Shown: positions 8,302 to 62,541, counted from the first letter of the stretch. The stretch: DNA of 63,152 bases from a virus (IMGVR_UViG_3300009506_000026:1-63152); one strand, 5' to 3'. Numbers and translations: made by a program. Notes: generated from the sequence alone by a model not told the origin.

Positions 8302-8309
8302 CAATCTAT

Positions 8310-8337
8310 AGAGAAGGGGGTTCTTTCCCCCTTCTCT
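8310..8337 (+). terminator. Strong hairpin (terminator or mRNA stabiliser)
   Basis: AGAGAAGGGGG-TTCTTT-CCCCCTTCTCT, an 11-bp perfect stem with no downstream U-tract. Confidence 0.55.
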
Positions 8338-8347
8338 GGAGAAAAAG

Positions 8348-8917: not shown

Positions 8918-8924
8918 GTGCCCC

Positions 8925-9590: not shown

Positions 9591-9593
9591 ACC

Positions 9594-31478: not shown

Positions 31479-31479
31479 T

Positions 31480-33867: not shown

Positions 33868-33877
33868 GTCCCCTTTA

Positions 33878-38970: not shown

Positions 38971-40105
38971 TGATCATCTCATATTCTTCTAGTAAAGATT
39001 GAATTCCTTGTGATGGGTCACTCGCCGTCAACATGGTGAAAAGTTTTTTCATTTGGGGCAAAACGACCTGCTCTATCCCGAACGATCTTTCATAATACAT
39101 ATACACACTCGTTTTGTCTGAGAAGTCTCGGGATCCAAGTTCTCCTTTAATCACACGGGCTATTTGTCTAAAGTCATCACTGTTATTTATGACTGTGCAA
39201 ACATCGGGGTTGGAAGATATTAAAGGATGGTGTCTATGTGGGAAGGACATAATCACTCGGGTTCCACATCGGAGAGCCTCAAGAGGTCCTCTATCATTTT
39301 GTCCATGTCCCCCTAAAAATAACGCCAACTTGGATTTATTCAAAATCTCACAAACTTCATTTCGGGGAACCATCCCTGTCATTCTAATTCTCAAATCATG
39401 ATCCAAAATATCCTGTAGGATTCCATTTGTAAATGTACCATGAGTTTTTCTGCCCGGGAGAATACAATTAAGCTTTTCCCCATATAACTTTTGGTACTCA
39501 ATCGCCACCTTCACCCCTCTCCATTGAGCCTTCTTGTCATGAATATGTGAACACCCAATACACACATCATAAATCTTAGGGGTCTTGATTGGACGAAAAA
39601 TGTAAGGATTCACTGGCTTTCTAAAATCTAAAAACAATCTGTTGTTCCTTCGGTCATACCAGTCCTTGCCACTTAAATCATCAAACACAATATCCCAAAA
39701 TTTCCACCTTTGTCTTCCCGTATTTGCAGCATATAAAAGTAACCAATGCTTTCCCTTCAATTCATTCAACAGATTAAACCAACTACGAAATCCCCCTCTT
39801 GCCCAAATAATATCTCCCTCCTTCAAAAACTCTCTCAGAACTTCAAAATGAGGGATCACATAACACTGGTGTCCTTCCAACGATGTTTGTCCTGTATTTC
39901 TTCCTGACTCCGCAAAGATCAAAACATCGTCAACGATTGCCTCCTCCTTCATCCTTTTTATTATTTGGAAGTATCCTTCAGTACCAAGACCGGAGTTCTC
40001 TCTTAGATACTCACAATGGGATTTCTTTCGTCTATCCCAAGGTTGATTCACCTCTCCACAACTGCCCCCCATATATATAAAAATCAACCTATTCATTTCA
40101 TCCAC
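38963..40105 (-). CDS. GT-B glycosyltransferase
   Basis: GMVPRNEVCEILNKSK, NDRGPLEALRCGTRVI. Confidence 0.78.
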   Translation of the reverse strand: MDEMNRLIFIYMGGSCGEVNQPWDRRKKSHCEYLRENSGLGTEGYFQIIKRMKEEAIVDDVLIFAESGRNTGQTSLEGHQCYVIPHFEVLREFLKEGDIIWARGGFRSWFNLLNELKGKHWLLLYAANTGRQRWKFWDIVFDDLSGKDWYDRRNNRLFLDFRKPVNPYIFRPIKTPKIYDVCIGCSHIHDKKAQWRGVKVAIEYQKLYGEKLNCILPGRKTHGTFTNGILQDILDHDLRIRMTGMVPRNEVCEILNKSKLALFLGGHGQNDRGPLEALRCGTRVIMSFPHRHHPLISSNPDVCTVINNSDDFRQIARVIKGELGSRDFSDKTSVYMYYERSFGIEQVVLPQMKKLFTMLTASDPSQGIQSLLEEYEMING

Positions 40106-40929: not shown

Positions 40930-42210
40930 TTACCAAGCCTGTATTGCCTCCTGCATTACTGGAGCATAATATCTAAAATAAAGTGAATCCATGTTATAGG
41001 TCTGTCGGCAAAATGTCTTTACCTTTAACACCTCACTTTGTCTCAGTCTCGCCACAATTGTATGAGCAATGGCGGCCCAATATTGCTCATTAGGGGGATT
41101 AAAATTTCTATGGAAACTACCAAACTCAAAATACAGAGCCTCGTGATTTGTAATCTCCACTTGGTTATCTAAGGATCTATTTAAAACTAACAAGGTGCCC
41201 GAGGCGGCGGCTTCGGGCACCACTAAACCAAAACTCTCCTCTCTTGTTGGAAAAATGAAAAGATTACTTAATAGAAATAGTTGGGATATCATGTGTTTGG
41301 GAATGCCTACATCATATTTGGGTGACTCAAATTCAGAAGTAAATATAATCTCCTTTCCCACAAACAATCCCTTTTCCTTTGCAATTTGCTTGTACCTATC
41401 AACATCTTCCTTCTGTTGTTTCCCTGTTGCCCATTGACAAGCTACTACTAAACAAATCGAAAAACCCATTGCCTTTAACTCACTAAAGATGGTGATTACT
41501 TCGGCAACCCTTTTAGCCTCAAGTCTATCAACGGAAGCAGGGAGCAATTGCACAATATCCGCTTGCATTACGGAAGGGTTTTGATCTATGAATCGCAGGG
41601 TATCTTCGTGGAAATCAAAGAAGGTTCTTGGATCTTTTATGTGTGGGATTATTCTCACATTATCATCCATCCCCCTGTACTGCTCCGCCACTCTTGTTCT
41701 ATAGGAAGCAGTAGGGAATACCAACTTATGATTTTTTCCATATGTCTGGATGTTCCACCAATCTCTCGCCACGGAGGGCATACTGTGAATCCAATGTAAC
41801 CACCGGGTATCAGGCATTCTTCTACCCACTTCAATGCAGGCTAAACCATAAGGCAAATTCCACCCAGTGAACACAAAATCATGTGTAAAGATGATTTTAA
41901 TCCCCGTTGATTCCAGTTCTTTGCAAAGAGCATTTGCAGTAGTATTAACAAGGAGCTTATGCTCGGCGGACATTTTGTATTGACTTTTGTAATCAACAAG
42001 GTGAGAGAAGGGAATTGATTTGTGCAAGGTTACTTCGGCAGGGAAAGTTTCTCCATTGTACCCCGAATTTACGAATAAGTGAACCTCATGCCCATGCCTG
42101 TTGAGCATCATTACTTGATCCTTCACGATGCCTGTTAGACTGTAGCCGGGCTGAAATTCCATGAACGTGGTTAGAATCGCAACTTTTTCTTTCATTTTTT
42201 TCTCCTTCAT
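40930..42210 (-). CDS. GT4 glycosyltransferase
   Basis: GHEVH, FIFPTREESFGLVVPEAAASG (ExF-x6-E). Confidence 0.9.
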   Translation of the reverse strand: MKEKKMKEKVAILTTFMEFQPGYSLTGIVKDQVMMLNRHGHEVHLFVNSGYNGETFPAEVTLHKSIPFSHLVDYKSQYKMSAEHKLLVNTTANALCKELESTGIKIIFTHDFVFTGWNLPYGLACIEVGRRMPDTRWLHWIHSMPSVARDWWNIQTYGKNHKLVFPTASYRTRVAEQYRGMDDNVRIIPHIKDPRTFFDFHEDTLRFIDQNPSVMQADIVQLLPASVDRLEAKRVAEVITIFSELKAMGFSICLVVACQWATGKQQKEDVDRYKQIAKEKGLFVGKEIIFTSEFESPKYDVGIPKHMISQLFLLSNLFIFPTREESFGLVVPEAAASGTLLVLNRSLDNQVEITNHEALYFEFGSFHRNFNPPNEQYWAAIAHTIVARLRQSEVLKVKTFCRQTYNMDSLYFRYYAPVMQEAIQAW

Positions 42211-42269: not shown

Positions 42270-45200
42270 TTATGAATAGCCCTGACATTCATACATTGAT
42301 ATTTCGGCGCACCCCGACTGGTAACTTCCTCCTCCCTGAGCTTCCGTGATTCTCCATCTATAATATTCATAATTTATCCCATTCGGAAATATCCAAGACT
42401 TTTCCTCTCCTTGTGCCCACGATAGTCCAGATTGACTATAGACGGTTGATTCCTCTCCTGAAAAATCTCCTGTACTTGAACCCTCCAGTACCCAAGACTT
42501 GGGAGCATACCCTATCGGTAATGGAGCCCATCTAATTACCAACCGCTCAATGTTCTTTGAGGCTGTTAAATGAAGTTTAATCCATGCATCTGCCGTTCCT
42601 ATGGTATCATAGGACATCCAAGCAGTTGTCTGATTGTCATCCGTCGCATTATCATCAATATAGGTGAGATATTCACTGCTGCTGCTAATTGTACTGCCTG
42701 TGGCACAATCCGATCCCCAGTCCGTACAATCCTCTGGTCCATAAAGAGTTGTTGTAGTAGTTGAGGAACAGGTGCTAGTACTCATCGTGGAACTTGTAGT
42801 TGAAAGTGTGGAACTTGTCGAGCTTGTAGTGGACAAAGTGCTGGTGGTTGAAGCTGTGGAACTGGAAGAACTGGTCGAACTCTGTGTAGAAGTGGTAGAC
42901 AAAGTGGAACTGCTAGAGCTTGTTGTAGACAACGTGCTTGTAGTTGAGGCTGTGGAACTGCTAGTAGTCGAACTTGAAGTGGTAGTTGTGGAACTTGTCG
43001 TTGTTGAAGTTGAACTAGTGGTGGACAAAGTGCTGGTTGTCGAAATTGTGGAACTGCTGGAGCTTGTTGTGGAGGCTGTGGAACTGCTGGTCGTAGTTGT
43101 TGAAGTAGTGGAACTTTGTGTTATAGATGTTGTGGTAGTCGAACTGCTTGAACAGGTCGTGGTGGTAGATGTAGTAGTGCTTGTGGTTGTAGAAGGATAC
43201 GTTGTTTCTGTTGTGGTAGTCGAACTGCTTGAACAGGTGGTTGTCGTACTGGAACTGGTCGTTGATAGGGTGCTTGTCGTGGACAAAGTGCTTGTGGTTG
43301 AAATCGTACTTGTGGTGGTAGATGTTGTGGATGTTGTCGTTGCCCCCGTTTCAGTCCAAGACTGATTATATAATTCAATATTAAATAGATACATTGGGTT
43401 GTGGTTACCGAGAGGTGTTGCAAATTCCAAATATTGCAAATCTCCTCTATTAAGCCAATTAAGATCAATCGTCCAATATTGAGTCCATTGAGGTAAAAGT
43501 ACATTGTAAATTACAGGACCAGAAGTGGTTCCTATCGTTAACCACGTATCCGCAGTAGGTGTTTCTAAGGGGTAAAAGGTTAATCTTATCTTTGCAGGTC
43601 TTAAATTATTTGCCCAATTTCCCTTTACCGACAACTTTGATACATGCATATCCCCCAAATGTGCATCTGGGTTATCATTAAATTCCCAATAATCATAATC
43701 ACCGTGCCAGGAAACCGATATGGGAGTTTCGGGTCCAGCTTGAACAGGCTCCCAACGATGATTGTCAAAAAATGAGGACCAGGGTCCTGCATACTCCACG
43801 TGTAGTTCCGCAGCATTGGTGGAATCGTAATTCTCATCCCCTGTCGCTGAATCTACCGTCATTCCCCCCCATTCATCCTCATTTAAAACTACATCTCTAT
43901 CCGATTTTACAATAACAATTAAATTTCCCCCATATCCTGGTCTGTTTATCACCTCCTGCAAAGATTCTGAAAAATCCACAGACCAAAACCATTCATGTTC
44001 ATTGGCACTTCGTATAAAAGACCATTTGGTACTAGCTGAGGTCAAAGGAAGAGCGTTATACTCCGCAATAGAAGTAGGGGCGACAGGATCATCCGCATCC
44101 ACCAAAAAGATTTCGGCAAAGGCGGAGCCCCCCTCAAGAACTGAGGAATAAGAAAAAGCACTTAATTTTAATCTTGAAGAAATAATAAGACTTTCCGGTT
44201 CAATATCTACATTTATGAATCTAAAAAAGGCATCATAATTATGAACAGTACCAGAATCGTTATCAGGACCAAAAATGATATTCCCAGTGGAGTTAAATGT
44301 TAGTTCTGTAATATGTCCATCATTTGCATTTCCTCTAACTTCCCAATAATCACTTGTCGAAGCGATTATCTTCAAAGAGGAGGAAGTCTGCCGACACTCT
44401 ATTTTTGCCCCCCTCGTACTTTGCACTATTCGGGTAACTCTGAACTTAGTGTACTCACTTATACATTGATTCAGTAGATCACGATCAAAGATTTCAAAAG
44501 GGGTAAACTCAAATTGGATAATATCCCCTTTATCAATTTCTGATAAATAGTCCCCACCATCAAATTCACAAATCAATCGAGGTTGTCTGTTTTCTCCAAG
44601 TACCCACCCTGCAAAAGATAGGGCCTGTGATTCCCCAACAACAAAATCTAAATCTATTGGTTCCCCTGTTAATTGACCATAAATATCTTGACTATCTGCA
44701 TCCTCTACCTCTATTACACTTTTTGACTTCTCAAGTTCTGATTTATTTCTTTCGGACCACTCTTTGGCATAGCTAATTAAAAATCGATTTCTAAGTTCGG
44801 AACGCTTGGTAAAACGCGATCTTGCGGTATTAAGAAAAATTCTCCCCTCATTGATCGTCTTATCGGAAGTGGTATTATCTGGGATATACTTTAGATGGTG
44901 CTCACCTAAACTATGGAACCAAGCACTCTTAGCTTGAAAAGCTATATTGGATACTAATTCCAGGACGTTCGGCGCTTCCGTTATAACTACTCCAAGAACA
45001 ATCGCTTCCGCCACGTAATTGGTGTGTGCGGTATTAAAATCAGCATTAAAATTATCTACCGACTCTCCACAATAATTAATCAAAAAATGTTGAATAATTT
45101 TCCCTGGGTATTCCAATAACTGACCCGATATTCCATACCCCCTACTTTGAATATCTGCTGATACTCTACCCCCTAATACTGTGTCCGCCACACTGTTTCC

Positions 45201-46736
45201 CGTTATATCCACAGTGCCAACTTTTGTGACATTCGAGGTTGTTTCTAATGGCTCAGTCTTAAATTCTATCCAAGCCAAAGAAACAAATACATATCCTAAG
45301 GAATTGCTCCCCCCTCTTAATAGGTCTCCTGTTAAATTATTTATTTTATCCCATGTGTCACACAAAGAATTAACATTATACCAATTACTTTTGAAGGTTC
45401 CCGTTGTACTTTCTTGAATATATCTATTAGCCCATGTAAATTTCATGTTGCAGTTGTTATCTATAAATGGAATATGCATACAAAGACGAAATTGAAGGGG
45501 TGTCTTGTCAGGAATCTCATACATTGCCTTACTGAGTTCCACTTCACACCCCGCATTTTTTATTTCCCCCCAATCCGTCAAGTTACCATTAACCAAATTC
45601 TCAGGAAAATTTACCCATCCCCCAGAACTGATTTTTTCAGCTATTTCAAATTCCCAAACTTCATATAAATCCTCGCCATGAGCATGACCCCCATCATTTA
45701 CATCAATGGAATCATCTACCTCTATATTAAACTGCTTTTCTATAGAGGGTTTCGCCGTAAATTTAATTACAGCCATCCCGGGGTAATCCTCATGTTCATC
45801 CCCCGTTTGCCCCGTATAAGCCACAAAGTTAGTAATCTGTCGTACCCATTCACCCGTGGTTCGATTCTCAATATAAATGGCATCAAACGATTTTATTGGG
45901 TGGTCCATAGCGAAAAGATACTCAGTTTGTATTTCCGCTATAGTCGTGCCTGCTTTATGTTCCGCCTGTGTAGTTTCCGCATACCCTCGAGAGCACCCCA
46001 TAAAAGAATTTCCTGAAATGTAGCTATAACTGATTTGTTCAAAATCAAGTTGTATAACTCCCCCTCCAACTGGAAACTTTGAGGTGTCCGTCGATTCAAA
46101 AAATGAAACACTGTCGCTAATATCTGCCACCAATGAGGTTAATGATCCCGAATCTACCCCCAAAAAAGGCATCTTTAAAATTCTACCATAAGCGATGGGG
46201 AATAACTTACCAACATCGTCAGGGTCCGCGCCGGGGTAAGACTCGGAAGTACAAAAGTTTCCCTGAAATTTATTTATTAGGGACACCTCGTTGGAAGTCA
46301 AATAGACCCTAACTCTGTCCACTCCTTCATTCTCAACATCCTCTATTTCTCCCTTAAAAATTAAATCCTTATCCTCAGCAGCCGAAGCCCCCTCAAAAAT
46401 TCGATAAATACTAACGGAGGAATACATAGGAGGAGAGGAACCAAATAACAAAGAAAAATTTCCCAAAGTTCCAATACTTACATTATTTGCCACCACAAAA
46501 CTTGCATTGCCTGGATCAGGGGTGCTTCCATCAAATCTAATGTCTCCTGAATCAAGGTCTCCCCATTCGAGTACTAAAGGTTCATAAATTTGTGAATTAA
46601 AAATAAAAGTAGAAGTACCAAACAATCTGTCACATAGATAATAGGTAGAGGAATCAAGAGTGATTTCGACAAGCCAAATAGGCTCCGTATGAGGAGAATC
46701 GATCTTTGTTTGATTAAAGGAACTTAGAGTTTTCAT
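42270..46736 (-). CDS. Tail tip/hub protein with ~198 aa Ser/Thr stalk and C-terminal discoidin (F5/8, CBM32-like) domain
   Basis: Follows the TMP and Dit genes; FPIAYG; S/T tract 42747-43340; SSSEY..NATDDNQTTAW..WIKL..APKSWVLEGS..YEYYRW. Confidence 0.8.
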   Translation of the reverse strand: MKTLSSFNQTKIDSPHTEPIWLVEITLDSSTYYLCDRLFGTSTFIFNSQIYEPLVLEWGDLDSGDIRFDGSTPDPGNASFVVANNVSIGTLGNFSLLFGSSPPMYSSVSIYRIFEGASAAEDKDLIFKGEIEDVENEGVDRVRVYLTSNEVSLINKFQGNFCTSESYPGADPDDVGKLFPIAYGRILKMPFLGVDSGSLTSLVADISDSVSFFESTDTSKFPVGGGVIQLDFEQISYSYISGNSFMGCSRGYAETTQAEHKAGTTIAEIQTEYLFAMDHPIKSFDAIYIENRTTGEWVRQITNFVAYTGQTGDEHEDYPGMAVIKFTAKPSIEKQFNIEVDDSIDVNDGGHAHGEDLYEVWEFEIAEKISSGGWVNFPENLVNGNLTDWGEIKNAGCEVELSKAMYEIPDKTPLQFRLCMHIPFIDNNCNMKFTWANRYIQESTTGTFKSNWYNVNSLCDTWDKINNLTGDLLRGGSNSLGYVFVSLAWIEFKTEPLETTSNVTKVGTVDITGNSVADTVLGGRVSADIQSRGYGISGQLLEYPGKIIQHFLINYCGESVDNFNADFNTAHTNYVAEAIVLGVVITEAPNVLELVSNIAFQAKSAWFHSLGEHHLKYIPDNTTSDKTINEGRIFLNTARSRFTKRSELRNRFLISYAKEWSERNKSELEKSKSVIEVEDADSQDIYGQLTGEPIDLDFVVGESQALSFAGWVLGENRQPRLICEFDGGDYLSEIDKGDIIQFEFTPFEIFDRDLLNQCISEYTKFRVTRIVQSTRGAKIECRQTSSSLKIIASTSDYWEVRGNANDGHITELTFNSTGNIIFGPDNDSGTVHNYDAFFRFINVDIEPESLIISSRLKLSAFSYSSVLEGGSAFAEIFLVDADDPVAPTSIAEYNALPLTSASTKWSFIRSANEHEWFWSVDFSESLQEVINRPGYGGNLIVIVKSDRDVVLNEDEWGGMTVDSATGDENYDSTNAAELHVEYAGPWSSFFDNHRWEPVQAGPETPISVSWHGDYDYWEFNDNPDAHLGDMHVSKLSVKGNWANNLRPAKIRLTFYPLETPTADTWLTIGTTSGPVIYNVLLPQWTQYWTIDLNWLNRGDLQYLEFATPLGNHNPMYLFNIELYNQSWTETGATTTSTTSTTTSTISTTSTLSTTSTLSTTSSSTTTTCSSSSTTTTETTYPSTTTSTTTSTTTTCSSSSTTTTSITQSSTTSTTTTSSSTASTTSSSSSTISTTSTLSTTSSTSTTTSSTTTTSSSTTSSSTASTTSTLSTTSSSSSTLSTTSTQSSTSSSSSTASTTSTLSTTSSTSSTLSTTSSTMSTSTCSSTTTTTLYGPEDCTDWGSDCATGSTISSSSEYLTYIDDNATDDNQTTAWMSYDTIGTADAWIKLHLTASKNIERLVIRWAPLPIGYAPKSWVLEGSSTGDFSGEESTVYSQSGLSWAQGEEKSWIFPNGINYEYYRWRITEAQGGGSYQSGCAEISMYECQGYS

Positions 46737-52264: not shown

Positions 52265-52906
52265 TTACGCAGTGGTTGTGGTAGTCGTAGTGGTTGTGGT
52301 AGTTGTGAAGGTCGAGCCGTCATTCCAAACAATTTGTCCCAACGGCTTGTCATCCCAACACGCATTTCCACCACTAATTTCCGAATCAGCCCTTTTAGCC
52401 TCAATTCGAATTGCAACCGCAGCAGGTTCCTCAGGAGCAAAGTCCATCTCAATTGAGGCGGAAACCTGTGCCCTGGGGAAGATAATGTTCATGGTATTGG
52501 TACCATCAGGATAAGTATAAATTGCTTCCATCCTGATATACTCCGCGGATGCCAAAGTACCAAGAGCAATTTTCCCTGTGTGTGCTGCGGAATATGCAGC
52601 ATCAGTGGGATCCAAACCACGAGCAAGCGCCATGTTCTTTGGAGTGATTTCTTTGAAAGCACATTCCAAAGCAGCCTGCTCACGAAGTGGGAAAACAGCA
52701 TCTTCCAACATAGGAAAACCTGATTCCAACTTGAAGAACTCCGTATTACCTACAAAACGAGTGTTTGCAAGTGCTCCAATAGAATCTGTGGAGGACAACC
52801 ATGGAGTTTGTTTTGTCAGATACGTGGCAGAAGCTGCCACTCTGACCTGAGCCAAACCCAATGCTACTGTAGTGGTATCTCTTGTTACAGGACCAGTTCT
52901 TGCCAT
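52265..52906 (-). CDS. Major tail tube protein with C-terminal T12-Ala tail
   Basis: Position; IGAL..T.F, EIT..N.ALA.G, IIFPRAQV pattern; ends STFTTTTTTTTTTTTA. Confidence 0.8.
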   Translation of the reverse strand: MARTGPVTRDTTTVALGLAQVRVAASATYLTKQTPWLSSTDSIGALANTRFVGNTEFFKLESGFPMLEDAVFPLREQAALECAFKEITPKNMALARGLDPTDAAYSAAHTGKIALGTLASAEYIRMEAIYTYPDGTNTMNIIFPRAQVSASIEMDFAPEEPAAVAIRIEAKRADSEISGGNACWDDKPLGQIVWNDGSTFTTTTTTTTTTTTA

Positions 52907-52908
52907 AC

Positions 52909-53220
52909 TTACTCACCCCCTTTCTTTTCGTTTGTGCCAGAATAATCTTCTTCCTTGGATTGAATTTTAGGTGGTAGATTAACAGGAAAAAAATTGAACG
53001 TATTCCAATGATCAGGATATTCCAATCTACAAGCCCTTCTAAAACATCTCATTTTTATGGAACCATGAACTAACATCTCTACCATAGGAAACTTCTCCGA
53101 AATAGGGACATCCTCATCTCGGTGACTTCTACCAAATACAAACCTCCAAAGTCCCCCTGGCAGTTTTTCAATCAACCTCTTCCCGCACTTCTCACAATGA
53201 AAAAACATTTTTCCGCTCAT
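52909..53220 (-). CDS. Com-like zinc-binding protein
   Basis: CEKCGKRL..IKMRCFRRAC..WN. Confidence 0.55.
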   Translation of the reverse strand: MSGKMFFHCEKCGKRLIEKLPGGLWRFVFGRSHRDEDVPISEKFPMVEMLVHGSIKMRCFRRACRLEYPDHWNTFNFFPVNLPPKIQSKEEDYSGTNEKKGGE

Positions 53221-53678
53221 AGCTTCGATGCCGTCCTTAATCTAACTGAAAGAGTTTTGTATTTGGTGCCATCGGGAGCTAGTAGTTGTCCGGATTCCAA
53301 AACCTCTTGTACCAACAATCCCCCTATTGCTACCCATGCCTGATTCAAATAACTTCTATACAATGTAATACTTTTCATCCCATGAGTTGCATTCTCATCC
53401 GATAGATACCCAAGCACTTTATCTTTTAGCTGTGCCAATCTCCACCCCTCATTGTCCTCCCTGGTACAGCAATGGACATACAGAAAGAAGGTTGACATAG
53501 TAGTGAATTCCATAGCACCAAAATTCACTGATACCCATTGTGTGCTACTAGAGTCAGGCTGTGAAATGCCAATATCAAAAACGGTGGTTATCCCCTCTGT
53601 GGTCTTTAAATTGTCCTTAAAATATTTAATAATGCTATCTCGGACATTGGCTTCTCGGGCAGTAGGATCAAGTGCCAT
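53217..53678 (-). CDS. Tail terminator-like protein
   Basis: Size and position upstream of the tail tube gene. Confidence 0.55.
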   Translation of the reverse strand: MALDPTAREANVRDSIIKYFKDNLKTTEGITTVFDIGISQPDSSSTQWVSVNFGAMEFTTMSTFFLYVHCCTREDNEGWRLAQLKDKVLGYLSDENATHGMKSITLYRSYLNQAWVAIGGLLVQEVLESGQLLAPDGTKYKTLSVRLRTASKL

Positions 53679-53679
53679 T

Positions 53680-53886
53680 TTAAAGTTCCTTAGCCTTCCT
53701 TACGTTTTCACAAATTCCATCCAATCCCTTAAAAAAATCCTCTTTGACGTACTCCACAATTTCCTTATCAATCTTACTTTCATCATACTGGCAGTGATCA
53801 AGGAAGTCGAGAATCATTTCGGCTTGCCTCAAGGACAATTCAAGACCAATAAATGTATCTCTATCCTGCACAAAAATTATTTTCAT
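53680..53886 (-). CDS. Hypothetical protein
   Basis: 68 aa, translationally coupled. Confidence 0.55.
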   Translation of the reverse strand: MKIIFVQDRDTFIGLELSLRQAEMILDFLDHCQYDESKIDKEIVEYVKEDFFKGLDGICENVRKAKEL

Positions 53887-54248
53887 TTTGAAAGAACCTC
53901 ATAAAAAGGATTATCTTTGTCCTTTAAATCCCAAGGATCATTATTAAGTTCCTCAAAAACCAATTTCTTAATATCTTGTCGTTCCTTCGTCCATCTTATT
54001 CTTTTTTTTCTACCTATATACTTTTTCCCAGAATGAAACAGCTCCAATAGTTGCGAGGTCAATAACCAATAAACAAATACATATTTGAGGCGTGTACTTT
54101 CGGGGTCCTTGCTGTCAACCCTTATCCTTATTCCCCTATTCATCTCATGCGACCAAACTCCCCACTCAACATCAAAACGGGACATCTTTTTGTCCATTGC
54201 CTCTTTGAACTTCTCGTCAATAAATTCAATGTACTTCTCTGGGGTCAT
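53883..54248 (-). CDS. Hypothetical protein
   Basis: ATG at 54248 overlaps the upstream TGA. Confidence 0.55.
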   Translation of the reverse strand: MTPEKYIEFIDEKFKEAMDKKMSRFDVEWGVWSHEMNRGIRIRVDSKDPESTRLKYVFVYWLLTSQLLELFHSGKKYIGRKKRIRWTKERQDIKKLVFEELNNDPWDLKDKDNPFYEVLSK

Positions 54249-54763
54249 ATCCATTGTTGCTCCAATCGCTTTAAAGCGGCTTCCGCTTGTCTGATCCAAC
54301 CTGTGTCCGAATACTCGATGCCCGTTGGAATAAACAAGGGTCTTGGTTTTGGGTATGTTCCAAAACCTTCCTCCACCAAGAGTGCATACCAAACAATTAA
54401 CTTCTTAGGTCCATAATCCCCAGCACCGAACCATGATTTTCCCCCACTATCTATTGCAGTGGGATCAACTCCCCCTAAATACCCCTTTGGCATTTTGATA
54501 ATCGTAATCGCATTCAATAGGTCCCTTTTCAGCATCCAAAACTTCATAGGAAACCCATGATCTTTCTTCCAAGATTCATACCTCTCATTATACGTAGGGT
54601 AACTAAATTTCCCCGACACCAAATTCTGCCTAACTAAATTCGTATATTCAAAGGCGCATGTATAGGGAAGTCTGTCCTCTAATATCCTTGCCTCATTCTC
54701 CAATTTATGAGTTGCCACTAACCAACGTCGCAACTGTCCTGGATCTAAAAAGGCCCTCAGCAT
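54245..54763 (-). CDS. Neck/tail completion protein (HK97 gp10-like)
   Basis: YALLVEEGFG..PKPRPLFIP C-terminal motif. Confidence 0.65.
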   Translation of the reverse strand: MLRAFLDPGQLRRWLVATHKLENEARILEDRLPYTCAFEYTNLVRQNLVSGKFSYPTYNERYESWKKDHGFPMKFWMLKRDLLNAITIIKMPKGYLGGVDPTAIDSGGKSWFGAGDYGPKKLIVWYALLVEEGFGTYPKPRPLFIPTGIEYSDTGWIRQAEAALKRLEQQWI

Positions 54764-55140
54764 TGATTCCTCACTGTGCCATTCAATACTTTCATACTTG
54801 TTAAACATCCCCCAAATTCATTAGGAGAACCGTCCCCATTTAGGGTTACATACGATTTGAAAAAATAGGGCTTAAATTCAATATACTCTTTTTGTTCCTT
54901 AAACAAAACAATTAGATCATGTTCTATCTGTAAAAAGGAAGGGAAAGCTGAGGAAAGCTCCTCAGGTATTTCCTCCGAGCTTTCGAAAACAGCATACCAT
55001 TTAGTTCCAACATTGTGCCAATTCACTTCCTCATATTTTTTAATTCTGATAATCTCCTTCAAAGACACATACTCCGATATCGATTCAATAATTTTGTTCG
55101 AATCCCCTTTTCCATTTTCCACTATAAATAGAGTTATCAT
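54757..55140 (-). CDS. Hypothetical protein (possible degenerate GT-A fragment)
   Basis: MITLFIVE start; TKWYAVFESSEEIPEEL. Confidence 0.55.
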   Translation of the reverse strand: MITLFIVENGKGDSNKIIESISEYVSLKEIIRIKKYEEVNWHNVGTKWYAVFESSEEIPEELSSAFPSFLQIEHDLIVLFKEQKEYIEFKPYFFKSYVTLNGDGSPNEFGGCLTSMKVLNGTVRNQC

Positions 55141-55313
55141 GTTACTGTCCTTGGATCCACAGATGTTGATTCGCCCTTAGGAAGCCCATTCTTTAAAATA
55201 CCACAATAACCACATTTAGGGCAAACGCAAAGGGTTTCTCCACTTGTATTTTTTTGGTCTTCCACCACAAACTCAGTCTGACAAACAGGACAAATAATAA
55301 TTAGTCCATTCAT
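55137..55313 (-). CDS. 58-aa zinc-ribbon protein (not in track)
   Basis: ATGA overlaps at both ends; CPVC..CPKCG. Confidence 0.65.
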   Translation of the reverse strand: MNGLIIICPVCQTEFVVEDQKNTSGETLCVCPKCGYCGILKNGLPKGESTSVDPRTVT

Positions 55314-55621
55314 ATTAAATCCTGAACTTTAAAGAAAACCATGTATTCCTTATAATTGTTACCACTACTTTGTACCTTACAAATTACATAGTAACCTTCT
55401 CCGTCGGTTCCATTTTGAACATAGATTCTTACAATTGAACCACTATAGGTACACTTGTTGGAATCTAATATAGTAGTGGAAACATCTACACCGTCTTCGT
55501 CATAGGCTTTAAAAGTTACATCGGAAATAGTTTCTTCGTCTAGCCATGTAGAAATATCAATATCTATATAATATTTTTCCCATGTAGTTTTAGGTTCAGT
55601 TACGGAAAAGCTTTCCCCCAT
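55310..55621 (-). CDS. Fibre-to-virion adaptor-like protein
   Basis: YYIDIDISTWL..ETIS..IYVQNGTDGEGYYVICKVQSS pattern of phage fibre adaptors. Confidence 0.6.
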   Translation of the reverse strand: MGESFSVTEPKTTWEKYYIDIDISTWLDEETISDVTFKAYDEDGVDVSTTILDSNKCTYSGSIVRIYVQNGTDGEGYYVICKVQSSGNNYKEYMVFFKVQDLI

Positions 55622-55633
55622 TGTAATCTCCTT

Positions 55634-57823
55634 TCATGCAACAAATCTATTCCTGGCATTCTCCGCAGTAAAAATTGCCCTCGCATTTTCCCCCACAAAT
55701 TCATTTCTATTAGTTTTTCCTTCAAACTCGGTATGTGGTTCTATCGACCAATCCATAGTAACGGTAGTTGTTGTGGTTGAACTACTGGTCGAAGAGGTCG
55801 AGGAACTCGTTGTTGAAGCTGAGGTGCTTGTGGTAGAGGAAGTTGAAGCAAGCTGTGTTACTGTTGTTGTGGTCGTTGAACTACTTGTGGTTGTCGAGGA
55901 AGTTGTTATGGTACTACTCGTCGTTGTGGACAGAGTTGTTGAGGTCGAACTGGACGACGAGGATGAAGTCGAAGTTGAGGAAGTTGTTGTAGTTAAAGTT
56001 GAACTGGATGACGAGGAAGAACTTGAGGATGAGGTTGTTGTGGTCTCACTGGTACTAGTAGAAGTTGAAACAGTTGAACTCGAGGTCGAGGAACCTGTTG
56101 TCGAAGTCGAAGTTGAGGAAGAAGTGCTTGAAGTAGTGGTTGTTGTAGCCGAACTCGAGGTAGTCGTCTCGGTTGAGGAAGTTGAGGTAGATGAAGTTGT
56201 TGTGGTTTCCGTCGTGGACGTACTCGAGGACGTCGAGGTTGAGGTCGTTGAACTAGTAGAAGAACTGGTAGAAGAACTAGTAGAAGAACTGGATGAGGTC
56301 GAACTAGATGAGGTTGTAGTGCTCTGAGTCGTGGCTCCTGGCTCGGTAGTTGAAGTACTTACGGTGGAACTAGTCGTGGTGCTCTGAGTTGTGGTACTTA
56401 TTGTGGAACTTGTCGAACTCAAAGTTGAGGTTGAAGTCTCAGTAGTCGTGGTGCTTGTAGAAGTAGTGGATGAAGTACTTGAACTAGTGGAGGAAGATGT
56501 TGAGGTAGAGGAAGAACTTGTGGTACTTGAAGATGACGAGGTCGTGGTCTCAGTAGTCGTGGTGCTTGTAGAACTCGAGGTGCTGGACGATGTTGTAGAA
56601 GCCGAACTCGAGGTAGTTGATAAAGTAGAAGAGGTTGTAGTGGTTAAAGTGGTAGTAGTTGCAGAGGAGCTTGTAGTTGTTGTAGAGGAAGAGGAGGTCT
56701 CTCCCGGCTCCGTCGTGCTGGTTGTTGTCTCAGTACTGGTTGTGGTTGACGAAGTTCCCGAAGTGCTTGTGGTCGAAGTATGTGAGGTCGAAGTTGTGGA
56801 ACTCGACGTGGTAGACAAAGTTGAGGATGTGGAGGCTGTGGAGCTTGTGGTTGAAAAAGTTGAAGATGTGGTGCTAGTTAGCGTCGAACTAGATGTGGTT
56901 GTGGAAGAGGAGCTTGTGGTTGAACTAGTCGAACTAAAGGAAGTTGAAGTTGTTGTGGTTGAGGTTGATGTTGTCGTACTGGACGTGGACGACGAAGTAG
57001 AGGAGCTTGTGGTTGAAGTTGTCGTACTGGACGTGGACGATGAAGTAGAGGAACTGGTAGTGGACAGAGTGGAGGACGTGGTCGAAAATGAAGAAGTAGT
57101 TGTTGAGGACTGGGTGGTTGTGGAAACCGTTGAACTTGAAGTCGAAAGAGTGGAACTTGTAGTGGACAAAGTTGAGGTTGTGGTTGAGGTGCCCGAAGTT
57201 GATGTTGTCGTACTGGACGTGGACGATGAAGTAGAGGAGCTTGTGGTTGAAACAGAGGTGCTTGAACTAGAGGATGAACTTGTAGTGGTACTACAAGATG
57301 TTGTGCTATACGTTGAACTGGTAGTTGAAGCTGTGGAACTCGAGGTGCTACAAGATGTTGTGGTTGAGGTGGAGGATGAGGTGGTACTAGACGACGAAGT
57401 AGAGGAACTTGTGGTTACTGTTGTAGTTGTGGTTGTAGTGCTGGAAGAACTTGTTTGTGGAGCAGCAACCGTAACATCTACAGGTGTAGTTGTATACTCC
57501 GTTAAATCATCCTCAATTAATTTTATTCTAACTTGAAACGAACCAGTAGTACCATCATTATAAACAGTTAGCTGTTGTTCATCCGTTGTTTGAAGGCCCG
57601 TTATGGGATTGGTTTCGGAGGAAATATTAAGGGCGCCAGAGGAACCAAGACTTGTCCAAGAACCTACTCCTTGGTCCCACTCAAAATACATATCACCCGA
57701 TTCTGCCCAACCACCACTGCCCGAAGTGGTAATCGCACCCCCCATCAAAAAACTGCCACTGGGTTCCAGTTCCGGATCCACCGTGGGGCGGGGCATTGTT
57801 ACGCCGGTGATATTAGTGGACAC
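55634..57823 (-). CDS. Mucin-like Ser/Thr-rich virion protein (729 aa)
   Basis: About 123 aa beta-rich N-terminus, ~566 aa S/T tract (55757-57454), short C-terminal segment; GAGGT RBS before GTG. Confidence 0.85.
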   Translation of the reverse strand: MSTNITGVTMPRPTVDPELEPSGSFLMGGAITTSGSGGWAESGDMYFEWDQGVGSWTSLGSSGALNISSETNPITGLQTTDEQQLTVYNDGTTGSFQVRIKLIEDDLTEYTTTPVDVTVAAPQTSSSSTTTTTTTVTTSSSTSSSSTTSSSTSTTTSCSTSSSTASTTSSTYSTTSCSTTTSSSSSSSTSVSTTSSSTSSSTSSTTTSTSGTSTTTSTLSTTSSTLSTSSSTVSTTTQSSTTTSSFSTTSSTLSTTSSSTSSSTSSTTTSTTSSSTSSSTSSTTTSTSTTTTSTSFSSTSSTTSSSSTTTSSSTLTSTTSSTFSTTSSTASTSSTLSTTSSSTTSTSHTSTTSTSGTSSTTTSTETTTSTTEPGETSSSSTTTTSSSATTTTLTTTTSSTLSTTSSSASTTSSSTSSSTSTTTTETTTSSSSSTTSSSSTSTSSSTSSSTSSTTSTSTTTTETSTSTLSSTSSTISTTTQSTTTSSTVSTSTTEPGATTQSTTTSSSSTSSSSSTSSSTSSSTSSTTSTSTSSSTSTTETTTTSSTSTSSTETTTSSSATTTTTSSTSSSTSTSTTGSSTSSSTVSTSTSTSETTTTSSSSSSSSSSSTLTTTTSSTSTSSSSSSSTSTTLSTTTSSTITTSSTTTSSSTTTTTVTQLASTSSTTSTSASTTSSSTSSTSSSTTTTTVTMDWSIEPHTEFEGKTNRNEFVGENARAIFTAENARNRFVA
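56970..57250 (-). repeat. Three near-identical internal repeats in the mucin-like gene
   Basis: GTTGTCGTACTGGACGTGGACGAYGAAGTAGAGGA at about 56970, 57018 and 57204. Confidence 0.8.
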
Positions 57824-57868
57824 TTCTTACCTCGGACATGACACGGCACCCACCGTGTAAGAAAAACT

Positions 57869-58543
57869 CTAAGCTGTGGTTGTGGTGGTAGATGTGGTGG
57901 TGCTTGTAGTAGTGGAAGTAGTCGTCCACTGCCGAGTATCTTCACCCACATCTAAGACATTCATCCCAGAATATCTTCTTTTCTTAATCGTTTCCACCCT
58001 TAGAAACGATCCATCTGAAAGCCTGATTCTATCATTTATTTGAATATCGATAGATTCAGGGAGATACATTTCATGGTTTTCTATCCCAAGAAGACCAATT
58101 TCCTCATCAGTATCCAAACTATTCCCGTATAAGGGGGTAGTCAGTAGAGCATCTACAGAAGAATCGATTAGGGTCCAAATGGTCCTTGATCGATACGAAG
58201 CAGGATCATCTATCTCAGAGGGCCTGAGAATCGAAATAACTTCATTTGTCTTGTAAAGAACGACATCATATTGAATCACGGCATCCTCGAACATTCTTGC
58301 CGTGCGGTTCATCACGTAGAATTTGTCCGAGGTTGTAACAAACTGGATCAGATCACCCCCCACCATTTCAGTATTATAGGCAGCCGCAGCCTCTAAGAAG
58401 AACTCACGTATAAAGGGTTTGGTGACTTGAGCATTTGGCTTGTAAGCCAAATATTCTCCCGTCACATTTCCGGAATCTCGGATAATAATAAAAGAGGTCC
58501 CAACCTCAGGAAGGACCTCGGCTATGTCGGGCCCTATTGTCAA
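57869..58543 (-). CDS. Head-closure/neck protein with C-terminal Thr/Ser tail
   Basis: Position; DIQINDRI..FLRVETI; ends TTTSTTTSTTTSTTTTTA. Confidence 0.65.
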   Translation of the reverse strand: MTIGPDIAEVLPEVGTSFIIIRDSGNVTGEYLAYKPNAQVTKPFIREFFLEAAAAYNTEMVGGDLIQFVTTSDKFYVMNRTARMFEDAVIQYDVVLYKTNEVISILRPSEIDDPASYRSRTIWTLIDSSVDALLTTPLYGNSLDTDEEIGLLGIENHEMYLPESIDIQINDRIRLSDGSFLRVETIKKRRYSGMNVLDVGEDTRQWTTTSTTTSTTTSTTTTTA

Positions 58544-59001
58544 CCATCCTCCTCACTGGGATTCATAATCACTTGATTACTATTCAAGTATGTGGTATCA
58601 ATCCCTGTGTGTTCCTGATATTGAAAGCCCGCCGCTATCTGTGTCCCAAACAACTCGTAAGCTTCCACCCCAGCGAATAGATCAGGCCTTTCATCCTTGA
58701 ATTTTTCAAAGTCCCGATCTTCCTGTCTAACCAAAGCCTGATAATGTTCAAATCTCTGTTGAAGTTGAATTCCTTCATACCTAAACTTATGAGCATTTCT
58801 GAGAACCATGTAATGAAATAAATGACGAGTGGCTCTGCGCTTCAACCATTTAATCTGTTCATTATCCGTAACAGGAAAAGACCAACCCGTTTCCCTTTCA
58901 GCCTCATCAAGTGCATCATCCCAATCTGTCCCATCGAATTTGAGAACCATAGCACTCCCAAATTCCCTCTTTAACAAAACCTCCATCTCATCCTGAGTCA
59001 T
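58540..59001 (-). CDS. Head-tail adaptor-like protein
   Basis: Helical 153 aa protein downstream of the capsid gene. Confidence 0.55.
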   Translation of the reverse strand: MTQDEMEVLLKREFGSAMVLKFDGTDWDDALDEAERETGWSFPVTDNEQIKWLKRRATRHLFHYMVLRNAHKFRYEGIQLQQRFEHYQALVRQEDRDFEKFKDERPDLFAGVEAYELFGTQIAAGFQYQEHTGIDTTYLNSNQVIMNPSEEDG

Positions 59002-59002
59002 A

Positions 59003-59326
59003 CTACCTCCTGATCAGCTTGGGCTTATCTCTGTTTGTTGGCTCCTTTAAAACGGGTCTTTGAACAACTAAATTCTCCACAAGTGGTTGAACTCCAGGAA
59101 CAATCTTCGATTTCATGTCTGGGGTTTGAAAGGTAGGGGAGAAGTGAATCCCACCTGGGGAAGTCAACTTCTCCCTCCCGTACTCAACAACCTCAATGTT
59201 CGAATTCCCTTCAAAAATATCAGGTAATAGAATGGAAGGAAAGGGACGACGAAGTACCGTCCCTTCTTCCCATACCTGACTCCCAGCCTTAATTGTTCTT
59301 CTCAGTCTGATAGCTTCGATTCTCAT
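59003..59326 (-). CDS. Hypothetical capsid-adjacent protein
   Basis: GGAGG RBS; ends DKPKLIRR. Confidence 0.65.
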   Translation of the reverse strand: MRIEAIRLRRTIKAGSQVWEEGTVLRRPFPSILLPDIFEGNSNIEVVEYGREKLTSPGGIHFSPTFQTPDMKSKIVPGVQPLVENLVVQRPVLKEPTNRDKPKLIRR

Positions 59327-59346
59327 GATTGTAATCCTCCGCCTAC

Positions 59347-60675
59347 TTAGGCTGTGGTAGTTGTCGTGCTGCTGGACGAAGTTGTAGTGGTTGAGGTCAG
59401 AGTGTCAGTGTAAAGCGACTTGACATCCAACGTGTAGATAGCATCCCTATTTTTGATAATAGGAAGACCTTTATCCTGAACACGAATCCAAACACCTTCA
59501 GGATCCCACTCGTACTTATCGTCCACCTTCTGTCCCCATTGTCGAGGCAAGGAGAAGGGAGCTTCCATGTACTTAGCAATTGGCATTCCATCAACTGTGG
59601 ATGCCATCATCAGGAACTTGTCATTGGGAATGTAATACTCAGGCATGAAGACCTGATCCTCCCCTGCCTTGTAAGACGAAGCAGGAGGATAGGATAGTTG
59701 GATTCTATTGGTTTCCGTCTCCACTGACTTGATATAGCAGTACTCATAGGTTCCTTCAGATACATCCAAGAACCTTACTTTCCCACCAGCCTTAAAATCA
59801 GAAACATCATCCAGTGTTATCCAAGTAGTTGATCCCCCCGTTACCGCTGCAACCAACCAAGCTTTGACCTCATACATTTCATCATAGACGATGAAGTTCG
59901 GGATATTCAAGATTCTTCCCAAGACCTGAACATTCACCCCCACAATTTCATGCAGGTTGCCCCCGTACAAATTCCCAGGGCCACCAGGGCCACCAAAATA
60001 GCTGTTATACAGAAGTTGACGGATAGTGGTATCATTCCCAATGTATTTCAGCACATTACTATTGCACATGGCAACATCGACGACTCCACCACAGTCCTCT
60101 TTGATCTTGGTCTTGCCGTCCTGAATATCACTGAGAATGTTTTTACTTCCACCGTTGTCCCAGTTATAAGCGGAAGCCAAAGTCACACGATGATCGGAGG
60201 GAATACCATAGTCGATAGTAACTTTGTACCCACCTTTCACCGCATAGGAGAAACCATTATTGAAAAGCATTTGGACAAACATCCATTCTTTTCTACGGTC
60301 ACTCCTGTTTTTTAATCCCGCCAGTTCCTCAGCCAATTTTTGCTCCGCAGCATGGTAATCCGCAGTCGTTCCGGGTTTTCGAAGATTGTTAAGGAATTCC
60401 TCATCAAAATACATCTTCTCTTTCCAGAAAGCCGCCGTGGCTGAATGCTGTGCGATTCCATGGGGAGCCGTTACCTGAGCAGGTGCCCCAGGAGCGGCGA
60501 ACGGGGTCATTCCACGCCCTCCCCTTTGGCTTTCCCATTTAATATCGGCAGATGCGGCTTGACTTGCCGTGAACCGATTCATAAAGAACAATTCCGGTGG
60601 AGTCATGAAAGTTCGCATGAAATCTTCCAGGACTTCCAACCTAAGAATAGGAATATCAGCAGTTCCTCTTGGCAT
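59347..60675 (-). CDS. Major capsid protein (lambda gpE-like) with inserted domain and C-terminal Ser/Thr tail
   Basis: MTPFAAPGAPA, DRRKEWM, IDYGIP, W..NILSDI, WDPEGVWIRV; ends TSTTTTSSSSTTTTTA. Confidence 0.88.
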   Translation of the reverse strand: MPRGTADIPILRLEVLEDFMRTFMTPPELFFMNRFTASQAASADIKWESQRGGRGMTPFAAPGAPAQVTAPHGIAQHSATAAFWKEKMYFDEEFLNNLRKPGTTADYHAAEQKLAEELAGLKNRSDRRKEWMFVQMLFNNGFSYAVKGGYKVTIDYGIPSDHRVTLASAYNWDNGGSKNILSDIQDGKTKIKEDCGGVVDVAMCNSNVLKYIGNDTTIRQLLYNSYFGGPGGPGNLYGGNLHEIVGVNVQVLGRILNIPNFIVYDEMYEVKAWLVAAVTGGSTTWITLDDVSDFKAGGKVRFLDVSEGTYEYCYIKSVETETNRIQLSYPPASSYKAGEDQVFMPEYYIPNDKFLMMASTVDGMPIAKYMEAPFSLPRQWGQKVDDKYEWDPEGVWIRVQDKGLPIIKNRDAIYTLDVKSLYTDTLTSTTTTSSSSTTTTTA

Positions 60676-61407: not shown

Positions 61408-62541
61408 TTATGCGGCTTCTTTCGTTGTCTGTCCCACTCTGCTTAGAAGGCGAGAGGTCAGACTTTTGTTTTCTTCGGCGAGGTGAGTCTTTTCCTCAAT
61501 TTCCTTTTCGGAAGCGCCACCCCCCATAATTTCATCGGACTTGGTGCTTTCCTCCCAAAACTTAATCTCTTCCTCCACGGCCTTACAAAACTCAGGTCGA
61601 TCCAAAACATCTTCCTTCACAAACTTATTGTAATCCACATTGTTTCGAATCTTGTCCTGAATCCTCTTTGGCAGAGTACTGGAAGCAAAGCTTTCGGACC
61701 AAATTGAAGCAACCTCGGCTTGAAGCGCCTTCTCTTTAGAAACATCCAACTCCCGGCGCAGCTTGACATTTTCTCCCTGAATATCCTGCATCAATCCTTC
61801 CTGAGTTTCCAATTTTTCAGAAATAGGAGCAAGCAATTCAGAGAAAGCAGCCTTCAGGGGCTCCAAAATGATAGCTACCAATGCATCCTTTTCCTTTTCC
61901 AAATCTTTGATATCAAACGGCATTTCTTCTTCACCTCCTTCTTGCTCTTGATTTAATTTGATCACGGTTTCCTCACACTCAATTTCTTCCATCACCTCCT
62001 TTGAAAATGCTGCGGCTGTAGTTTTTGAATCCCATCCAAATACACACACCGACATTTCCTTAAATTCCGACTTCCTCCAAATCGCTCCAGGGCCTTTAAG
62101 CTTATAGCCATTCACTTCCGCTTCTGCTCCCTCTTCTAACCTCTCTATGGAAGTCGGTTTCGCATAAATACTAGCCTGATAAGGAAAGCCCTCTCCAGAA
62201 AGCTTCTGAAATTCACGACTTTCCTCCGTATCCGCAAAAATAACATCCTCCGGAGCCTCAATTTTACCATTCTCAACTATGGGTTTCCCCATGTGTGCAA
62301 TCTTCCGATCCGTCTGGTGATCCTCTAAAATAGGGAACCTTTTTTGATTAAATGACATACCAGAAAGATCAATCGCCAAATCACCCCAATACCAATGCCC
62401 CTTAATAATTCCCCCCGAGTATCCTACCATTTTAAGCTTTTTAGGTTTGTCCTCTCCCTCCGAAAAAACAAAAGCAGTACACCCTACACCTGTCTCTACT
62501 AAACGAAGGGCTCCTTTCGGTAGTTTCTCTAATTTCATCAT
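61408..62541 (-). CDS. Prohead protease-scaffold protein
   Basis: GYSGG, PILEDH, FPYQASI, EMSVCVFGWD; acidic coiled-coil C-terminus. Confidence 0.85.
   Translation of the reverse strand: MMKLEKLPKGALRLVETGVGCTAFVFSEGEDKPKKLKMVGYSGGIIKGHWYWGDLAIDLSGMSFNQKRFPILEDHQTDRKIAHMGKPIVENGKIEAPEDVIFADTEESREFQKLSGEGFPYQASIYAKPTSIERLEEGAEAEVNGYKLKGPGAIWRKSEFKEMSVCVFGWDSKTTAAAFSKEVMEEIECEETVIKLNQEQEGGEEEMPFDIKDLEKEKDALVAIILEPLKAAFSELLAPISEKLETQEGLMQDIQGENVKLRRELDVSKEKALQAEVASIWSESFASSTLPKRIQDKIRNNVDYNKFVKEDVLDRPEFCKAVEEEIKFWEESTKSDEIMGGGASEKEIEEKTHLAEENKSLTSRLLSRVGQTTKEAA

Follow-up and report, generated by a model that had tools for sequence, protein, structure and literature searches.

The 63,152-nucleotide viral record IMGVR_UViG_3300009506_000026, analysed at its full length and hereafter called the window, encodes three structural proteins that end in a serine/threonine (Ser/Thr)-rich C-terminal tail, which we call the tag. 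The original prediction, made from the sequence alone, had noted an identical TTTTTA-stop terminus on three unrelated structural proteins, and this terminus was confirmed in all three open reading frames (ORFs):

Positions 52265-52906, minus strand: tail tube protein of 213 amino acids (aa), with the tag T12-A after ...IVWNDGSTF, ending ...GSTFTTTTTTTTTTTTA before the stop
Positions 57869-58543, minus strand: neck protein of 224 aa, with the tag TTTSTTTSTTTSTTTTTA after the conserved ...GEDTR, ending ...RQWTTTSTTTSTTTSTTTTTA before the stop
Positions 59347-60675, minus strand: major capsid protein (MCP) of 442 aa, ending ...TLTSTTTTSSSSTTTTTA before the stop

The tag of the MCP occupies approximately the last 16 residues (TSTTTTSSSSTTTTTA), and an 8-residue spacer separates it from the end of the conserved core, ...YTLDV. 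Across the window, the tag is a Ser/Thr run of 12-17 residues followed by alanine (Ala) and the stop. Scanning all six frames of the whole window for ORFs (minimum 40 aa) in which Ser/Thr make up 8 or more of the final 12 residues returned exactly these three.

The three tagged proteins have three different folds. The MCP matched Pfam PF03864 (Phage_cap_E) at 1.8e-28 (100 bits against a cut-off of 22.9) and phrog_29 at 1.4e-42, and its identity by these profiles is secure; a search of PDB with its sequence found nothing. For the tail tube protein, no Pfam, PHROG or PDB sequence match was obtained. The top 10 Foldseek matches of its structural model were all siphophage tail tubes with a probability of 1.00 (Douge, Bxb1 and Mystique among them), at TM scores of just 0.4-0.5 and a model confidence (pLDDT) of 62, and its gene lies in the canonical place, directly upstream of a chaperone pair and the tape measure gene. 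The model of the neck protein reached a pLDDT of 80.5, and its residues 1-100 and 95-205 each matched stopper and connector proteins with VIA-align Z values of 9-10.5, including XkdH, the Douge connector, the SPP1 gp6/gp15/gp16 connector complex (109-aa chain) and the stoppers of T1 and phage 812; by sequence, its matches in PDB were at chance level only. The stopper family (SPP1 gp16, XkdH type) has a small beta-barrel fold of about 110 residues, which was found in both halves of the neck protein. A single barrel is the norm in that family, whereas the model of the 224-aa protein points to a tandem of two stopper/head-closure barrels, and the earlier label of head closure was right in kind. 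Judging from known siphophage architecture, the hundreds of tag copies per virion proposed earlier are plausible for the capsid and the tube, and the neck protein would contribute few copies.

At the DNA level, all four Thr codons were used, in an order that differed between the three genes, with GCG, GCT and GCC as Ala codons and TAA, TAG and TAA as stops. Since codons, Ala codons and stops all vary, the tails are neither a microsatellite nor a copied DNA segment. Thr and Ala make up 8.2% and 7.0% of the residues encoded by 19 structural genes. From these frequencies, chance would give about 2.6e-7 TTTTTA ends per protein and about 2e-5 over all 87 ORFs of the window, against the three observed. 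In addition, one 17-residue tail peptide was encoded by 5 different DNAs on different contigs, which differed at up to 12 of 54 bases, all synonymous. These synonymous-only differences indicate that the order of Ser and Thr, beyond mere composition, is under purifying selection, and together with the codon usage they uphold the earlier claim that the mixed codons reflect selection on the protein and no microsatellite.

As judged by their homologues, the tags are discrete appendages, because tail-less homologues of all three proteins end exactly at the tag start. Tail-less MCP homologues (415-417 aa) stopped at ...LDVN or ...LTVA, tail-less neck homologues ended ...EDTR, and tail-less tubes ended ...IIWG or ...FLTGGDMV. 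The MCP matched 610 database clusters, and the tail was present in 108 of the best 120. The tract in these 108 clusters was 13-63 residues long (median 20); 54 ended exactly in TTTTTA, 62 had a single Ala after the tract, and 64 showed a pattern of a T-run, an S-run and a T-run. The same kind of tail was found on non-homologous virion proteins, in this clade as well as in phages whose capsids are different, bearing out the proposed portability: across phages, its carriers were the capsid, stopper, tail tube, tail fibre, head-tail adaptor and small fibre-like proteins. The residues after the tract agreed within a genome in 12 of 30 pairs compared with 5.8 in shuffles (p ~0.004; 10 distinct genomes, not corrected for relatedness). 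All three ends were A in the window and its nearest relative, all were AP in genome G006, and all ended in P at locus L010. This concordance is weak evidence, which would fit a single reader enzyme in each genome or sequence exchange among the tails.

We searched viral contigs with the MCP and obtained 60 loci, in which 57 MCP homologues were classed. The survey of MCP and tail tube C-termini in relatives, suggested with the original prediction, revealed that tails were present or absent together: among the 44 loci in which at least two of the three proteins were readable, 15 sets were tailed, 29 were untailed and none was discordant (0/44). The tail was carried by all three proteins in 11 loci and by both readable proteins in 4, and it was lacking from all three in 14 and from both readable proteins in 15. 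Gene content was then compared across 17 whole records plus the window. In the tailed records (n = 8, window counted), 33 of the 514 ORFs had Ser/Thr tails, and every one of them lay in the structural module; some ORFs appear twice in this count because two pairs of these records are near-identical or overlapping contigs. The tailed proteins included fibre-region proteins non-homologous to the three of the window. No Ser/Thr tail was found on any of the 871 ORFs of the tail-less sister records (n = 10). Mucin-like internal tracts were confined to tailed records, as were five window genes, predicted to encode the following glycosyltransferases and glycosyltransferase-like proteins:

Positions 40930-42210, minus strand: GT-B (GT4-like) glycosyltransferase, 426 aa, the first gene after the tail-fibre genes (Pfam, PHROG)
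Positions 38963-40105, minus strand: second GT-B (GT4-like) glycosyltransferase, 380 aa (structure atlas, PDB profile)
Positions 34627-35331, minus strand: GT-A (GT2-like) glycosyltransferase, 234 aa (PF00535 in 2 of 3 family members, best E 1.3e-7)
Positions 30747-31520, minus strand: GT-A (GT2-like) protein, 257 aa (Atlas structural TM 0.70-0.82 to GT2 clusters)
Positions 28918-29859, minus strand: GT2 glycosyltransferase, 313 aa (PF00535, 3.2e-13)

All five were absent from the tail-less records compared. They lie in a glycosyltransferase-rich block that follows the fibre genes, from 40930 down to 28918, at the 3' end of the structural operon and on the same strand. The 426-aa enzyme matched PF00534 with 29.3 bits against a cut-off of 26.4 and phrog_2170 at 1.6e-10; PF13439 scored 25.9 bits, under its cut-off of 28.5, and up to an E-value of 0.01 its Pfam list held PF00534, PF13439 and PF13692 only. 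The 380-aa protein had an Atlas feature score of 0.98 and TM scores of 0.72-0.77 to GT1/GT4 clusters, together with weak PDB profile matches to GT1-family enzymes (best E 0.0085), and a sequence search of PDB with the 234-aa family found nothing.

The 426-aa GT-B was found in 4 of 11 tailed records compared with 0 of 15 tail-less records, 3 of the latter being complete genomes. The tailed records without it were fragments (12-51% complete), and in the two of these that were checked, the contig ended before the expected module region. In near-complete genomes of the tailed MCP clade it was present in 7 of 7 (G006, G067, G071, G079, G083, G085 and G089), three of which look like near-copies of each other. 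The 426-aa GT-B is the conserved anchor of the module and a candidate for the enzyme that reads the tag.

A tail-less sister clade (L029-L049, L057 and L061) had C-terminal ends of another kind. Its MCP ended in an acidic tyrosine (Tyr) motif, ...AFDLDEY, its neck homologues had acidic Tyr-containing ends (...DDEVYDD and ...EEDYEEEY), and its tube ended ...FLTGGDMV. The acidic Tyr ends may likewise represent a C-terminal signature that two virion proteins share.

We further followed the 426-aa enzyme into other lineages. A scan of viral contigs with the single sequence found no relative, and a profile built from four homologues retrieved 97 relatives; 80 loci (25-63% identity) were retained. 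At least one Ser/Thr-tailed ORF lay within 10 kilobases (kb) of the enzyme in 48 of the 80 loci. The enzyme ORF was called in 74 loci, which held 67 tailed ORFs among 1523 ORFs. Of these 67, 55 lay no more than 2.5 kb upstream of the enzyme gene and on its strand, and without a distance limit the number rises to 65. With four already analysed records removed, the enzyme was directly downstream of tailed genes in 41 of 70 loci. A distant match to the window MCP (25-26% identity) was present in just 2 of 40 enzyme records, the longer records being those covered. In the 95-kb record G039, whose enzyme is 50% identical, the proteins with tails include a major tail protein from a different family (phrog_807, 2e-26) as well as a head-tail adaptor (phrog_477, 2e-12). 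Lineages that are more distant carried the tail on small proteins with a weak resemblance to tail fibres (E 2.5e-4 to 8e-3), whose genes lie just before that of the enzyme. Two jumbo-sized records (277 kb and 224 kb) carried the enzyme family with no tail in their 10-kb neighbourhoods. The accessory enzymes varied, each accompanying the 426-aa enzyme in 10 to 23 of the 80 scanned loci, with the 313-aa GT2 in 23; a constant enzyme with changing partners agrees with the picture of one anchor to which different extenders are added. The link between tails and glycosyltransferases that had been suggested from the window alone is supported both by the co-occurrence of the genes and by their neighbourhood. 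In an 86-kb record (G087), the 426-aa homologue (G087:C1:12836-14131) has one in-frame TAA, which may reflect a disrupted gene, an error in sequencing or stop-codon recoding.

The window also encodes two Ser/Thr-rich proteins in the structural region:

Positions 55634-57823, minus strand: mucin-like protein of 729 aa, 75% Ser/Thr, with mixed codons and short non-repetitive ends
Positions 42270-46736, minus strand: tail fibre-region protein of 1488 aa

The 729-aa protein had no family match in Pfam, PHROG and NCBIfam scans. Its gene lies between the neck gene and a gene for a Gp77-like fibre adaptor (55310-55621; PF23148, 1.1e-7), and the protein is likely a further substrate or a virion fibre. 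The Val/Glu-rich ORFs on the opposite strand (55773-56327 and 56391-57536) are most likely mirror artefacts of low complexity. The 1488-aa protein contains an internal Ser/Thr tract of 205 residues (approximately residues 1128-1332), followed by a C-terminal domain of about 155 residues, and its homologue in the nearest relative (1288 aa) has a poly-Thr tail at the end.

The remaining genes noted within the glycosyltransferase block were as follows:

Positions 38389-38970, minus strand: S-adenosylmethionine (SAM) methyltransferase, probable sugar-tailoring
Positions 37766-38431, minus strand: PIG-L family deacetylase, probable sugar-tailoring
Positions 36954-37778, minus strand: hexapeptide acyltransferase, probable sugar-tailoring
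Positions 36056-36997, minus strand: radical SAM/SPASM enzyme
Positions 33878-34615, minus strand: ClpP-like protease, second besides the prohead protease (61408-62541)
Positions 32680-33894, minus strand: metallophosphoesterase adjoining the ClpP-like gene; best NCBIfam match archaeal DNA polymerase II small subunit, 7e-14
Positions 31480-32091, minus strand: SAM methyltransferase, 203 aa

The four tailoring genes (36056-38970) are specific to this phage and lie outside the conserved core. The best NCBIfam matches of the radical SAM/SPASM enzyme were cofactor and peptide maturases, all far under their cut-offs, and it could act in sugar tailoring or on the peptide; it has a homologue in one further record (G003, 46% identity) and weak ones in some tail-less records. 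The 203-aa methyltransferase is kept in the module of two tailed relatives and is also present in one tail-less record. Neither the ClpP-like protease gene nor the metallophosphoesterase gene is conserved in tailed relatives.

The shared tails are real and far beyond chance, and glycosylation is the best-supported reading of them. We consider it probable that the tag is a portable acceptor for cytoplasmic O-glycosylation by the phage's own module, with the 426-aa GT-B as the initiating enzyme. Under this proposal, the Ser/Thr C-terminus would serve as an acceptor on otherwise complete virion proteins. Late in infection, expression of the structural operon would include the glycosyltransferase module at its 3' end, and the 426-aa GT-B would most likely recognise the disordered Thr-rich terminus in the cytoplasm and add the first sugar. 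The glycan could then be extended and tailored by the variable enzymes, namely the second GT-B, the three GT-A/GT2-like proteins and the methyltransferases, and in the window phage also by the deacetylase, the acyltransferase and the radical-SAM enzyme. The outcome would be a virion coated with mucin-like glycopeptide brushes, with the 729-aa mucin-like and 1488-aa fibre proteins modified likewise. Shielding, colloidal stability and adhesion are candidate roles for such a coat. A broader proposal, which we put forward tentatively and hold short of probable, is that the 426-aa GT-B represents a new family of protein O-glycosyltransferases reading a disordered poly-Thr C-terminus, and that enzyme and tag together form a modular 'write anywhere' system with which many uncultured phage lineages would glycosylate any of their virion proteins in the bacterial cytoplasm.

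Several results weigh against the glycosylation reading. Sugar attachment is itself something we infer, from genes and their arrangement. The assignment of the 426-aa enzyme as a protein glycosyltransferase is indirect, its Pfam score is marginal, and its family profile found no match in PDB by sequence. Ser/Thr tracts double as internal linkers in this phage, and some of them may simply be linkers. In an MCP tree of 160 distinct core rows (118 tailed, 42 untailed), built after removal of the tails, the tail trait required one change (branch support 68). With a single change on the tree, the three tails and the five enzymes of this clade count as one retained historical event; many independent gains behind the all-or-none pattern were rejected, since the tree needs just one change. 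Outside the clade, 32 of the 80 enzyme loci had no tailed ORF within 10 kb. We also performed the reverse test, a search of viral contigs for the Thr6-Ala-TAA DNA pattern, which gave at least 129 matching stretches. The enzyme family was present in 7 of 23 long records chosen among the matches listed. For near-complete T6-Ala-stop records, again among the matches listed, 7 of 15 had the enzyme family and 8 of 15 lacked it, and a one-to-one tie of poly-Thr tails to the 426-aa family was therefore rejected. Six of the 7 enzyme-positive records belong to the MCP clade of the window. The negatives indicate that the tag is wider than the 426-aa enzyme family. One record without the family (G082; 51 of 78 ORFs Pfam-scanned) had a 1156-aa protein combining FkbM methyltransferase, GT1 and GT9 near the tailed gene. 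Another (G086), a complete provirus of 41 kb, has portal and holin genes of SPP1 type and poly-Thr tails on the capsid (PF05065) and the tail tube (PF06199) (features L352:12402-12956 and L352:15376-16332), and no glycosyltransferase was recognised by Pfam among the 50 of 65 ORFs scanned. At least one phage may thus rely on a host enzyme or on no sugar. This provirus also carries two GDSL-lipase-domain tail proteins and a weak hexapeptide transferase.

These points bear directly on what else the tails could be. They might work sugar-free, as disordered hydrophilic 'bristles' or linkers acting against aggregation or for sticking to polysaccharide, with the module serving another purpose. The provirus G086 with its tailed capsid and tube, the 8 of 15 near-complete T6-Ala records without the enzyme family and the linker tract of the 1488-aa fibre protein all favour such a role, which we nevertheless regard as unlikely: it leaves unexplained the tight adjacency of tails and enzyme (55 of 67 within 2.5 kb upstream, with other capsids too) and the absence of all five glycosyltransferases from tail-less sisters, and a composition-driven bristle needs no exact Ser/Thr order, yet that order is kept through synonymous change. 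Less likely still, the tails could be glycosylated by host enzymes, and the phage module could modify host surface polysaccharide or phage DNA. A host enzyme could act in G086, and PMC12619734 describes phage glycosyltransferases that modify DNA or host serotype. The window phage would itself modify its DNA by another route, through 7-deazaguanine genes. Against this stand the placement of the module, which closes the structural operon and shares its strand, and the fact that it appears and disappears along with the tails. Moreover, glucosylated phage DNA needs a hydroxymethyl-pyrimidine pathway, and Pfam scans of the window found none.

It is also conceivable, at a very low probability, that the tails are processing or assembly signals, cut at maturation or acting as protease or chaperone tags, and are absent from the finished virion. 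The ClpP-like protease within the module, besides the prohead protease, would suit this role; that gene is not conserved in tailed relatives, the same tag on tube, stopper, fibre and adaptor proteins misfits capsid maturation, and tracts of 13-63 residues are unlike a defined cleavage signal. Functionless low complexity arising by chance, or a slippage-prone repeat, has nothing but the low complexity itself in its favour and next to no probability. The counts already refute it, given three ends against about 2e-5 expected, mixed codons with tail DNAs that differ synonymously only, and tails on 108 of the 120 best MCP homologues, 54 of the 108 being exactly TTTTTA.

Virion O-glycosylation of the mycobacteriophages Che8, Corndog and Myrna was reportedly described by Freeman et al. 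in Cell Host Microbe in 2023. Two papers that cite this work, PMC12619734 and PMC12363180, place glycans of these three phages on the C-termini of capsid and tail-tube subunits, and name Che8 gp110 and Corndog gp38 as essential glycosyltransferases. In the Che8 sequence, the capsid ends ...NKTGS and the tail tube ...YSDGS, so that both likewise share a C-terminal end, a short ...GS. Che8 has no poly-Thr tract, whereas the window has its Ser/Thr run plus Ala and no ...GS terminus. Also unlike Che8, the tag of the window clade is 12-63 residues long, offers many potential sites, and occurs on neck, fibre and adaptor proteins as well. Like the Che8-type system, the window encodes phage glycosyltransferases (five glycosyltransferase-like genes). 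The Che8 enzymes are gp108 (GT2 plus TylF-like methyltransferase), gp109 (GT2-like) and gp110 (GT25), with no GT-B among them, whereas the anchor of the window module is a GT-B; the two systems share only the very broad GT2 family. BLASTP of the 426-aa enzyme against gp108, and of the 313-aa GT2 against gp109 and gp110, detected no similarity (best E 0.075 to 4.8). On these comparisons the proposed window system is analogous to that of Che8 but neither homologous to it nor a member of it, with a different tag, anchor enzyme and phage lineage.

The serine-rich-repeat adhesins of Gram-positive bacteria are glycosylated in the cytoplasm by GtfA/GtfB, a GT4 enzyme pair. There, a GT4-family GT-B puts the first sugar on long cytoplasmic Ser/Thr tracts and other glycosyltransferases extend it, and the window has two GT-B proteins encoded close together (426 and 380 aa); the adhesin system may be the nearest mechanistic analogue. 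No sequence match to GtfA or GtfB was seen, though no search aimed at one was made. In contrast to the adhesin system, the proposed substrates in the window are virion proteins whose tags are short and terminal, and no accessory Sec system is present. Large DNA viruses such as chloroviruses encode their own glycosyltransferases that decorate the major capsid protein; they differ from the window phage in that they are eukaryotic viruses, their glycans are at internal sites and their enzymes are unrelated.

A full-text literature search turned up no paper about poly-threonine tags on virion proteins of phages. C-terminal virion glycosylation is already in print; the long portable poly-Thr tag with a GT-B-anchored module is, as far as we searched, apparently new. 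As far as we found, phage-particle glycosylation has been shown only for a few mycobacteriophages (PMC12619734 and PMC12363180). The MCP family of the window is large in metagenomes, and phages with other capsids likewise combine the enzyme family with tailed proteins. If sugars are indeed attached, sugar coats would be common among environmental phages, with a bearing on adsorption, stability, grazing, immune recognition and the way in which cryo-electron microscopy maps are interpreted, and a short encoded tag for cytoplasmic O-glycosylation would be useful as a tool. Under the broader proposal above, glycosylated phage particles would be common in nature and no mycobacteriophage oddity, and a tag of 12-20 residues plus one enzyme could serve cytoplasmic glycoengineering as a portable tool.

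The window is a whole IMG/VR virus record, linear, estimated to be 74% complete and with a guanine-cytosine (GC) content of about 41%. According to ORF calls, Pfam and PHROG, its minus-strand half is a siphophage late operon, in the order prohead protease, MCP, neck proteins, tail tube, chaperones, a 1342-aa tape measure and fibre proteins. Among GenBank phages (50,697 records), the MCP had just 9 matches, all distant (25-29% identity across roughly half of the protein), and the 426-aa enzyme had no match at E 1e-5, and because matches were distant or absent, the phage has no cultured relative. As far as can be told from the GC content and the lack of a close cultured relative, the host is not actinobacterial. 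The plus-strand half encodes replication proteins of bacterial type (DnaG- and DnaB-like proteins, beta clamp, clamp loader, RecA and SbcCD-like). An archaeal virus origin, prompted by the label of one metagenome-assembled genome and the match resembling the PolD small subunit, was dropped on the evidence of these bacterial-type genes (DnaB- and DnaG-like proteins, PolA, beta clamp and RecA). The DNA polymerase gene and a set of 7-deazaguanine (queuosine/archaeosine-type) genes spanning 6240-12177 on the plus strand were as follows:

Positions 15045-17648, plus strand: family A DNA polymerase, 867 aa, a single ORF with N-terminal uracil-DNA-glycosylase-superfamily and 3'-5' exonuclease domains
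Positions 6240-6665, plus strand: QueD/PTPS
Positions 6629-7342, plus strand: QueE-like radical-SAM gene
Positions 8348-8917, plus strand: GTP cyclohydrolase I
Positions 9594-11186, plus strand: glutamine-amidotransferase-QueC fusion
Positions 11467-12177, plus strand: second QueC-like gene

The 7-deazaguanine gene set suggests the presence of a modified guanine in the phage DNA.

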